Virus record (IMG/VR): IMGVR_UViG_2526164690_000049
Source of the DNA: a virus
Lineage: Duplodnaviria > Heunggongvirae > Uroviricota > Caudoviricetes
Strand: one strand, 5' to 3'
DNA: 10,763 nucleotides
Shown here in pieces: positions 3,743 through 4,398 of this stretch; position 1 is the first letter of the stretch, and the number at the start of each line of letters is the position of its first letter. Under the pieces are notes generated by a model. That model did not search any database. It saw only the letters and a list, made by a program, of their open reading frames with translations, and was not told the origin of the DNA. Position numbers and translations under genes: made by a program.

Positions 3743-3766
3743 CAAAAAGCCGGATTGCTCCGGCTG
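3743..3766 (-). terminator. Rho-independent terminator after the 74-aa ORF
   Basis: GCCGGA (3749-3754), loop TTGC, TCCGGC (3759-3764); on the minus strand the stem is followed by TTTTT (3748-3744). It lies 11 nt past the stop at 3776. Confidence 0.65.
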
Positions 3767-3775
3767 TATGCGTGC

Positions 3776-4000
3776 TCAGTCCCTGATCCCTTTCAGAAAT
3801 TCTATCAATGCATCTATCTGTTCAGGATTTACCGCCAGCATTTCACCGGACAGAGCACATCTCACAAAACCATGCTGATCCTTTTCAATCAGTGCGCCCG
3901 TCTCCAGGAATGCGCGGTAATCATTGATGCTCATCGTCTCCATGTTGTCAGCATGGTATTTATCACGTTGTTTTAATATCTCATCAAATTTCATCGGCAT
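3776..4000 (-). CDS. Hypothetical small protein, 74 aa (start ATG 4000; the ORF track extends it to 4078)
   Basis: MPMKFDEILKQRDKYHADNME... with GAGGAA about 8 nt upstream of ATG 4000-3998. Bounded by terminators on both sides, so it looks like a monocistronic unit. No family recognised. Confidence 0.55.
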   Translation of the reverse strand: MPMKFDEILKQRDKYHADNMETMSINDYRAFLETGALIEKDQHGFVRCALSGEMLAVNPEQIDALIEFLKGIRD

Positions 4001-4095
4001 TGTTTTTTCCTCTGTTGTGTCTGTTTGTTTCAGATAGTAACTATGCCTGACCGTGACGAAAACCCGGTAATGCGCCATACCGTTTCAACTGGTGC

Positions 4096-4119
4096 AAAAA
4101 AAGCCGGATTTCTCCGGCT
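4096..4119 (-). terminator. Rho-independent terminator after the SSB operon
   Basis: GCCGGA (4103-4108), loop TTTC, TCCGGC (4113-4118); on the minus strand the stem is followed by TTTTTTT (4102-4096). It lies 5 nt past the stop at 4126. The stem is almost identical to the 3743-3766 terminator. Confidence 0.7.
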
Positions 4120-4125
4120 GTGTGA

Positions 4126-4398
4126 TTAGCTGTCCTGGTAATTTCGCCATATTTCATCACCAGCACCATCCATACCCATTTCGGCATAAGTGCGATCGAC
4201 CGCCTTTTTCAGGTCTCCGTAATTATCCGGCGGCTCCGGTGGCCTCTGTGCCTTTCTGGAACATTCCAGCCGTCGCATCGTAACCTGATGCCGTTCCTTG
4301 TCTGTCTCCACCAGCAGCATGACTTCACCCCATCGCGCCGACGCCCTCCGGTAAAAGCCTTTTGCCTCGAGTTCCTCCGCTATGCGGTCATGTACCAT
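4126..4398 (-). CDS. Hypothetical protein, 90 aa, last gene of the SSB operon
   Basis: ATG 4398-4396 lies 10 nt after the SSB stop, and the spacer GGGGGTGACG is a strong SD. The 130-aa extension in the ORF track would overlap SSB and is rejected. No family recognised. Confidence 0.55.
   Translation of the reverse strand: MVHDRIAEELEAKGFYRRASARWGEVMLLVETDKERHQVTMRRLECSRKAQRPPEPPDNYGDLKKAVDRTYAEMGMDGAGDEIWRNYQDS

Follow-up and report, generated by a model that had tools for sequence, protein, structure and literature searches.

The stretch of DNA analysed here is the 10,763-nucleotide virus record IMGVR_UViG_2526164690_000049 from IMG/VR (Caudoviricetes), which we refer to at its full length as the window. 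Between positions 3743 and 4398 it carries two small genes, both on the minus strand, together with two almost identical hairpins. Following the direction of transcription, a 90-aa open reading frame (ORF; 4398..4126), which encodes a PerC-family protein, is succeeded by a predicted terminator, T2 (4095..4119, with its stem-loop at 4119..4102 and then a U7 tract), by a leader (4001..4094), by a 74-aa ORF (4000..3776), here called p74, and by a second predicted terminator, T1 (3737..3765, with its stem-loop at 3765..3748 and then UUUUUGUCAUUUUUU). An earlier inspection of the letters alone, the sequence-only reading, had picked out both ORFs and both hairpins (at 3748-3765 and 4102-4119) and had placed them between the replication and head modules of a satellite. 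These features were all recovered in our analysis, and the proposed location is supported by the gene order. As set out below, the region is likely to represent an accessory segment of a capsid-forming phage-inducible chromosomal island (cf-PICI) that is organised as two separate minus-strand transcription units, an assessment that covers the architecture and the identities of the genes.

Repeated terminators and a 354-bp cassette

The pattern AGCCGGA-N4-TCCGGCT occurs exactly twice in the window, even when one mismatch is allowed, and was matched in none of 200 dinucleotide-preserving shuffles. The similarity between the two sites reaches past their stems to give a 27-nt direct repeat (3744-3770 and 4098-4124), identical at 25 of 27 positions, with a start-to-start spacing of 354 bp. 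A terminator scan called both sites on the minus strand, each with a 7-bp stem containing 5 G-C pairs, a 4-nt loop and a U5-U7 tract after the hairpin (TTTTTGTCATT at T1 and TTTTTTTGCAC at T2). The corresponding RNAs fold with energies of -14.4 kcal/mol (z -3.94) for T1 and -12.8 kcal/mol (z -3.86) for T2, and the hairpins begin 10 nt past the p74 stop codon and 6 nt past the perC stop codon, respectively. Neither hairpin has a T-run behind it on the plus strand, which implies that both act in one direction only, that of the genes. T1 and T2 each place a G+C-rich stem-loop and a U-tract past a stop codon, on the same strand as the coding sequence. They have the sequence features of intrinsic terminators, and we predict that they are Rho-independent terminators that end the p74 and perC transcripts, respectively. 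T2 is identical in ‘prophage Sp7’ of E. coli O157 Sakai. The description of both genes as terminator-bounded in the sequence-only reading holds for p74, which is bracketed by the two hairpins, but not for the 90-aa gene, which has a terminator at its 3' end only.

Comparison with related islands was used to follow the 354-bp unit (3744..4097), which consists of one terminator copy together with p74 and its leader. FORC_029 possesses the same island at the same attachment site minus one 354-bp repeat period, with the junction lying inside the hairpin. The single hairpin that is found there is a hybrid, which combines the 5' flank of T2 with the loop and 3' flank of T1. Among islands with the HK97 capsid-forming module, the cassette is present in the window, in Sakai and in the E. 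coli OkiPb01697 island (L024), and is absent from FORC_029; among those with a lambda-like capsid/decoration/terS module, it is present in one (L004) and absent from another (L025). Furthermore, whichever gene comes last ahead of the packaging module is closed by the same hairpin, and other island types lose homology precisely at T1 (query position 145) or T2 (query position 498). The terminators are a true duplicate, in keeping with the duplicated terminator cassette that had been proposed. The present and absent states in collinear islands and the place of the junction are shown by the sequences, and we read from them that the cassette comes and goes as one block through recombination between the hairpin copies.

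The likeness of T1 and T2 could also be put down to the generic form of strong terminators or to gene conversion, in which case there would be no cassette and the 74-aa ORF would be incidental. Short G+C-rich hairpins followed by T-runs are indeed common, the scan of the whole window having returned 19 terminator-like sites where 12.2 were expected by chance. This explanation is nevertheless highly improbable, given the match at 25 of 27 positions with flanks outside the stem included, the failure of the shuffles to generate the pattern, sister islands that differ by exactly one 354-bp period with a hybrid hairpin at the junction, and an ORF that has a dN/dS of 0.08 and ~40%-identical relatives in other genera.

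The cassette differs in composition from its neighbours, with a G+C content of 0.45 against 0.55-0.58 for perC and ssb. Across 5426 complete E. coli genomes, p74 was found at 592 places (in 539 genomes) and the perC allele of the window at 825 places (in 727 genomes), counts which imply that around a quarter of PchE-type loci are without the cassette. Since the p74 family holds its position in other genera, loss from FORC_029-type islands would be the more economical direction of change.

L004 and L025 are E. coli islands at roxA/phoQ and near clpS, and belong to a PICI type that has a lambda-like major capsid protein, a head-decoration protein and terS, and has no portal, protease or terL gene. 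This type and the cf-PICIs share a segment comprising alpA, ssb, perC and p74, as well as a final 93-aa gene, and the two swap modules at the terminator. The repeated terminator provides a concrete example of short terminator repeats serving as recombination joints that shuffle modules between satellite types.

A PchE-like PerC gene and a conserved 74-aa family

The sequence-only reading had recognised neither protein, but the 90-aa protein can be identified as PerC/PchE-like. It matches PF06069 (PerC) across profile positions 1-89 of 90 (E 2.7e-44; 149.8 bits, against a gathering cut-off of 22.6) and phrog_994 (E 3e-46), carries the RefSeq name ‘PerC family transcriptional regulator’, and is identical at 82/90 residues (91%), with a dN/dS of 0.21, to PchE (ECs1588) of O157 Sakai. 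Its neighbourhood (p81-ssb-pchE-ECs1589-capsid) and terminators are likewise the same as those in Sakai, so that by identity and by context it has the properties of a PchE orthologue and is a PchE-like allele of the group 3 Pch type. Selection has kept the coding sequence of both ORFs, with dN/dS values of 0.08 for p74 and 0.21 for the 90-aa gene, and the conditions named as refuting the sequence-only reading therefore do not apply. A PADLOC scan of the 90-aa and 74-aa proteins returned no defence-system match.

The 90-aa gene is the last of a compact set of three. The genes for an 81-aa phrog_1231 protein (p81; 5061..4816, minus strand) and for SSB (4819..4409, minus strand) overlap by 4 nt, and perC starts 10 nt past the ssb stop codon. 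The PerC family owes its name to activation of the LEE1 (ler) promoter in the LEE (locus of enterocyte effacement). The p81 and ssb genes of the window are orthologues of Sakai ECs1586 and ECs1587, and 5' rapid amplification of cDNA ends has shown that the pchE transcript begins 10 nt upstream of ECs1586, so that ECs1586, ECs1587 and pchE share a polycistronic mRNA (PMC7369912). PchE, described as a ‘group 3’ PerC homologue of O157, represses csgD/curli, biofilm formation and HEp-2 adhesion, and strongly raises fliC expression and motility (PMC6265319, PMC7369912). The LEE1 promoter is not activated by PchE or by the PerC-like genes of EcCIEDL933 and EcCICFT073, and is repressed by the PerC homologue of EcCIMP1 (PMC6265319, PMC11773190). 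PerC-like genes are more generally recognised as accessory genes of Gram-negative PICIs (PMC11773190). As a member of the PerC family close to PchE, with its published phenotypes, the 90-aa protein is probably a host-directed regulator carried by the satellite. Through this PchE-like allele, the satellite would be tied to the control of curli, flagella and adhesion in E. coli pathogens.

Two annotations in this part of the islands deserve mention. In the OkiPb01697 island (9367-9528), a 53-aa protein annotated as ‘PerC family’ is an in-frame fusion of the SSB N-terminus to the PerC C-terminus and represents a deletion product; beside it, both terminators and the 74-aa gene are intact. In addition, a 42-aa ‘hypothetical protein’ of RefSeq (window 4041-4169, minus strand) overlaps the end of perC and crosses T2. 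It has counterparts in two other loci (L001, 9442-9570; L003, 3442-3557), is named as a frameshifted ‘trigger factor’ in other strains, and is almost certainly an annotation artefact.

The p74 product is small and acidic (pI 4.9), is 100% identical to Sakai ECs1589, and matches phrog_1957, a family of unknown function (E 7e-42). It has no match in Pfam, NCBIfam or PADLOC, profile scans revealed no helix-turn-helix or zinc-finger match, and a search of the available literature found no paper that mentions ECs1589. Codon comparison indicates that p74 is a real gene under purifying selection: relative to a 91%-identical E. coli allele it displays 13 synonymous and 4 non-synonymous codon differences (dN/dS 0.08). 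The ATG at 4000 is preceded by a good ribosome-binding site, with the Shine-Dalgarno sequence AGAGGA 8-9 nt ahead of it, and the Met-Pro N-terminus is nearly invariant among relatives.

A word-based search recovered copies of the gene from E. coli only. An exhaustive HMMER search identified relatives of 76-106 aa that are 35-42% identical to the 74-aa protein, and a profile search extended the family to 161 proteins in Enterobacterales, nearly all of them annotated as ‘hypothetical’, in genera that include Klebsiella, Citrobacter, Raoultella, Enterobacter, Serratia, Hafnia and Pectobacterium. Relatives with 32-49% identity were found in Klebsiella, Phytobacter, Enterobacter, Pectobacterium, Kluyvera, Serratia, Leclercia, Erwinia, Proteus and Xenorhabdus, and overall the family occurs in at least 10 Enterobacterales genera. 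One 1383-aa repeat protein (P0019) was matched seven times; this was judged to be low-complexity repeat noise, and the protein was excluded from the alignments. Searches by tblastn with the E. coli member and with one Klebsiella member against 50,697 phage records gave 0 matches, so that, in the collections searched, the p74 family is found in satellites rather than in deposited phages.

A structural model of the 74-aa protein was generated using AlphaFold2. The prediction from a 58-sequence alignment reached a pLDDT of 93.7 and superseded a poor single-sequence model (pLDDT 57), and fold searches with the model retrieved no structural relative.

We examined the genomic context of the family in 13 loci from ~10 genera. 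Every locus with enough flanking sequence has the p74 homologue on the same strand, with a primase or RepA gene and its iterons to one side and the cf-PICI capsid gene to the other. This position is kept with three unrelated initiator/iteron types, namely a primase with GGTGAACA, RepA with GTGCGGCA, and a DUF927-annotated primase with TAACCCGCA. The non-E. coli islands that were examined are without SSB and PerC, and in Xenorhabdus p74 lies directly 3' of a p81 homologue. Outside E. coli, the p74 homologue is the first gene past the origin iterons and starts 30-50 nt from the last of them, an arrangement that might be expected of a replication-module accessory, such as an origin-associated or loading factor, instead of cargo. 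The SSB gene in the E. coli neighbourhood and the p81 homologue in Xenorhabdus point in the same direction. A specific origin partner would, however, be expected to co-vary with the initiator, which the three unrelated initiator/iteron types speak against, and the gene is dispensable in many islands; we therefore regard a replication role as quite unlikely.

The sequence-only reading had also asked whether this slot varies between related islands. The p74 family turned out to be its conserved occupant across genera, and the variability lies directly after it. In twelve loci (L005, L009-L015 and L018-L021) a hypervariable cargo slot of 0.56-1.6 kb separates the p74 homologue from the capsid control region. 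It houses at least 8 unrelated genes, often on the opposite strand, several of which encode small membrane proteins; apart from one Pfam DUF3775 match and one marginal PADLOC match, these had no match in Pfam or PADLOC. Nothing occupies the slot in the window from E. coli, and it may be a hotspot for uncharacterised defence or accessory genes. Tentatively, the ECs1589 family marks the boundary between the origin and the hypervariable cargo slot in cf-PICIs across Enterobacterales, and may constitute a new kind of satellite-helper or satellite-host factor, for example one that binds a helper-phage or host protein while the island is resident.

The surrounding island and its capsid-operon control region

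Compared over its full length, the window shares 99.9% identity with an island of E. coli O157:H7 PV15-279 that interrupts tqsA. The two differ by 10 substitutions and two 1-nt gaps, with 0 differences within 3743-4398. The PV15-279 island codes for int, alpA, primase, capsid, protease, portal, connectors, HNH, terS and terL, and occupies a total of ~15 kb between the two halves of tqsA. The window itself spans int through the head-closure gene, and the PV15-279 island continues past the window end with a head-tail connector, HNH, terS and terL. The gene order of the window equals that of Sakai ‘prophage Sp7’ (ECs1574-1599, between roxA and phoQ). With int, alpA, a replication module and its own packaging genes, no tail or lysis genes, and a length within 10-18 kb, the island has the gene content of a cf-PICI, and by this comparison of sequences the window is a cf-PICI of the EcCIEDL933/Sakai Sp7 family. 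Since its content matches that of EcCIEDL933, the prototype cf-PICI, the setting is a kind of phage satellite that is already known.

On the minus strand, the transcription order begins with the integrase gene (10763..9546) and the gene for an AlpA-type regulator (9172..8984), followed by a gene for an Icd-like protein, a gene for a 99-aa DUF4222 protein (7163-7462) and a P4-type primase gene (7181..5349). The DUF4222 protein takes the place that in O-island 51 is held by RgdR (ECs1581), a type III secretion regulator (PMC3378721). Only 32/99 of its residues are identical to those of RgdR, and the RGD (Arg-Gly-Asp) motif is absent at residues 20-22. The 287-bp replication origin (5062-5348) contains at least 8 GGTGAACAG iterons, arranged in direct and inverted orientation around an AT-rich core with a G+C content of 0.33. 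The same iteron core is found in Klebsiella and Pectobacterium cf-PICIs; RepA-type islands have GTGCGGCA instead, and Sakai Sp7 has TAACCCGCA. An Rfam scan of the whole window returned nothing but spurious microRNA-precursor matches on the inverted repeats of the origin. Beyond p81, ssb, perC and p74 come the control region and leader of the capsid operon (3485..3743, minus strand), and then, 3' of the 74-aa ORF, the genes for the HK97-type capsid, prohead protease, portal and head-closure proteins, also on the minus strand.

Transfer of a cf-PICI requires all of its packaging genes, and as read in this record those of the window are not all intact. The portal gene (1713..503) has 1 nt fewer at 746/747 than its PV15-279 counterpart, which shifts the reading frame, so that the 393-aa portal ORF ends in an aberrant C-terminus and the true C-terminus forms a separate 77-aa ORF (736..503). 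This frameshift represents either a real pseudogene, in which case the island would be non-transferable, or a sequencing error.

Directly past T1 (window 3697-3740, minus strand), the control region holds a box, TTGTAAATTATTTGTTC, followed by three copies of TTGTTC at 10-bp spacing. This box is a conserved feature ahead of the capsid operon, present there in the window from E. coli as well as in 12/12 other cf-PICI loci. Around 20-30 nt downstream of the TTGTTC repeats lie a putative -35 element, TTTACC (TTTACA in other genera), and a putative -10 element, TATTCT (TATCTT). Judged by these motifs, the box, the repeats and the -35/-10 elements probably make up a late promoter with an activator site. 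We also considered that the TTGTTC repeats might be reused GGTGAACA-like origin iterons, and rejected this because the region upstream of the capsid gene is constant in loci that possess other iteron types.

Two hairpins accompany this putative promoter. The first, with GACG as its loop, sits where the 5' end of the capsid-operon leader is predicted (3646..3623, minus strand). In 13 cf-PICIs from ~10 genera, 117/117 cells of the alignment are paired and 5/9 pairs display compensatory double changes, a level of covariation that was reached in 0/500 shuffles and that compares with at most 1 such pair in slid controls. It matches no Rfam family, and may regulate the late operon as an RNA element. 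The second, terminator-like hairpin (GUCCUGG...CCAGGAC with U7; 3486-3522, minus strand) ends exactly at the capsid ATG, and the 76-nt segment around it folds at -17.9 kcal/mol (z -2.2), with the Shine-Dalgarno sequence AGGA in the 3' arm. This hairpin could attenuate transcription or mask the ribosome-binding site.

Expression of the two proposed units and comparison with known systems

In published RNA-seq of O157 strain PA20 after 12 h of SOS-inducing treatment with sulfamethoxazole-trimethoprim (SMX-TM), transcripts of ECs1589 changed by a log2 value of -2.31 (false discovery rate, FDR, printed as 0), those of pchE by -1.46 (FDR 0.004), those of ECs1586 by -1.97 (FDR 0.004) and those of the capsid-operon gene ECs1590 by -2.69 (PMC5931665, table S2). 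The Sakai orthologues ECs1589 and pchE are, according to the same table, transcribed in uninduced O157 and, because their transcripts are lower after SMX-TM, they behave like cargo of the resident state.

In the leader, no sigma-70 promoter with at least 9/12 hexamer matches was found between 4001 and 4101; the best candidate, TTTTCG-17-TACTAT, has 7/12. The leader forms no stable fold (z +1.05) and is kept in the 91%-identical E. coli allele. The genes for small late activators, Ogr/Delta and RinA among them, classically sit immediately upstream of the operon that these proteins switch on. In ~10 genera p74 is the final conserved gene ahead of a late control region that is itself conserved, and by this position it might encode such an activator, or a co-factor, of the satellite capsid and packaging operon. 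Against this, FORC_029 has an intact packaging module and the same control region without the 74-aa gene, and p74 is equally present or absent ahead of an unrelated packaging module that has a different upstream region (L004 versus L025). The protein is also acidic, with neither a helix-turn-helix or zinc-finger match nor a fold relative, and its transcript falls rather than rises under SOS-inducing conditions. Taken together, these observations make a late-activator role unlikely.

We instead favour a model in which the region operates as an accessory segment with two transcription units. In the first unit, p81, ssb and perC would share one mRNA, made from a promoter lying at the replication origin's edge, as shown for the Sakai orthologues, and this mRNA would be ended by T2. 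The second unit would be the 354-bp cassette, with its 100-nt leader, the 74-aa gene and T1, which duplicates T2; under this arrangement the 74-aa gene might be regulated independently, as the sequence-only reading had suggested. T1 and T2 would then double as recombination joints, and could allow both units to be expressed in the resident state without transcription entering the capsid operon, which would rely on its own conserved promoter region and structured leader directly past T1. As for the 74-aa protein, it is possible that it is a protein-binding accessory factor of the resident or early state that modulates the relationship between satellite and helper or between satellite and host. 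By position, it could be the counterpart of genes for interference and accessory functions that lie past the origin in Staphylococcus aureus pathogenicity islands (SaPIs), rather than a structural or DNA-binding late factor.

Several observations weigh against this model. No promoter above threshold lies between T2 and the 74-aa gene, whose expression could need read-through of T2 or an activator. The RNA-seq table reports fold changes and not absolute levels, and insulation by the terminators would not be absolute, because capsid genes also give a signal that falls (ECs1590, -2.69). The absence of the 74-aa gene from about a quarter of PchE-type loci implies that it is not essential for the island life cycle. 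Finally, the phenotypes attributed to the PerC protein were measured on PchE, from which the window allele differs at 8 residues.

A separate idea concerns AlpA. AlpA of P. aeruginosa is reported to be a processive antiterminator (PMC7969949). The AlpA protein of the window matches only the structure of a generic ‘AlpA family phage regulatory protein’ (8c3t, E 2.6e-6), and we found no paper on antitermination by a PICI AlpA. Antitermination by AlpA through T2 and T1 was kept as an idea only.

Among known systems, SaPIs carry accessory and interference genes, such as Ppi, after their origin. These resemble p74 in their small size and in their position between the origin and the packaging operon; no similarity in sequence or fold to anything was detected, and the analogy is one of position only. 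The cassette as a whole also recalls the morons of lambdoid phages, a concept due to Juhala and Hendrix, which consist of a promoter, a gene and a terminator inserted between genes that are adjacent in relatives, and which are expressed from the prophage. Like a moron, the cassette ends in a terminator, is absent from collinear relatives (it is lacking in FORC_029 and L025 and present in the window, Sakai, L004 and L024), has a deviant G+C content, and gives a transcript in uninduced cells. It differs in that no convincing promoter of its own was found. Moreover, moron cargo is usually sporadic, whereas the p74 family is fixed at its position across genera.

The closest counterparts lie in O157 itself. 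PchE (ECs1588), encoded in Sakai Sp7 and in O-island 51 (CP-933C) of EDL933, is like the PerC protein of the window in family, in its length of 90 aa, in its position after p81 and ssb, and in the terminator that lies past its stop codon; the two alleles differ by 8 substitutions, mostly in the C-terminal third, and the PchE island is found between roxA and phoQ, whereas the window island type is found in tqsA. Next to pchE, ECs1589 encodes a protein that is 100% identical to the 74-aa protein, with a leader and flanking terminators identical to those of the window. EcCIEDL933 (bioRxiv 10.1101/2022.09.08.507074) has the same module order and gene content as the window island, with no tail or lysis genes annotated, and differs in its primase allele and in the portal gene, which is frameshifted in the window. 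In the available text of the EcCIEDL933 papers, mutations were made in the packaging module only (bioRxiv 10.1101/2022.09.08.507074), and a search of that text found no mention of the PerC gene or of the 74-aa gene.

In summary, the region is ordinary satellite architecture, already present in reference genomes, that carries one uncharacterised conserved gene. Because the 90-aa gene is already explained, the value of this analysis lies mainly in correcting the earlier reading. The useful new point is the 74-aa gene, which has been overlooked in published cf-PICI work and which, leaving aside the replication and packaging modules, is one of a small number of genes with a fixed place across genera, together with a confidently predicted and unmatched fold. 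Its family is the only part of the region worth an experiment, for which it offers a cheap and well-defined target for deletion and interaction studies.

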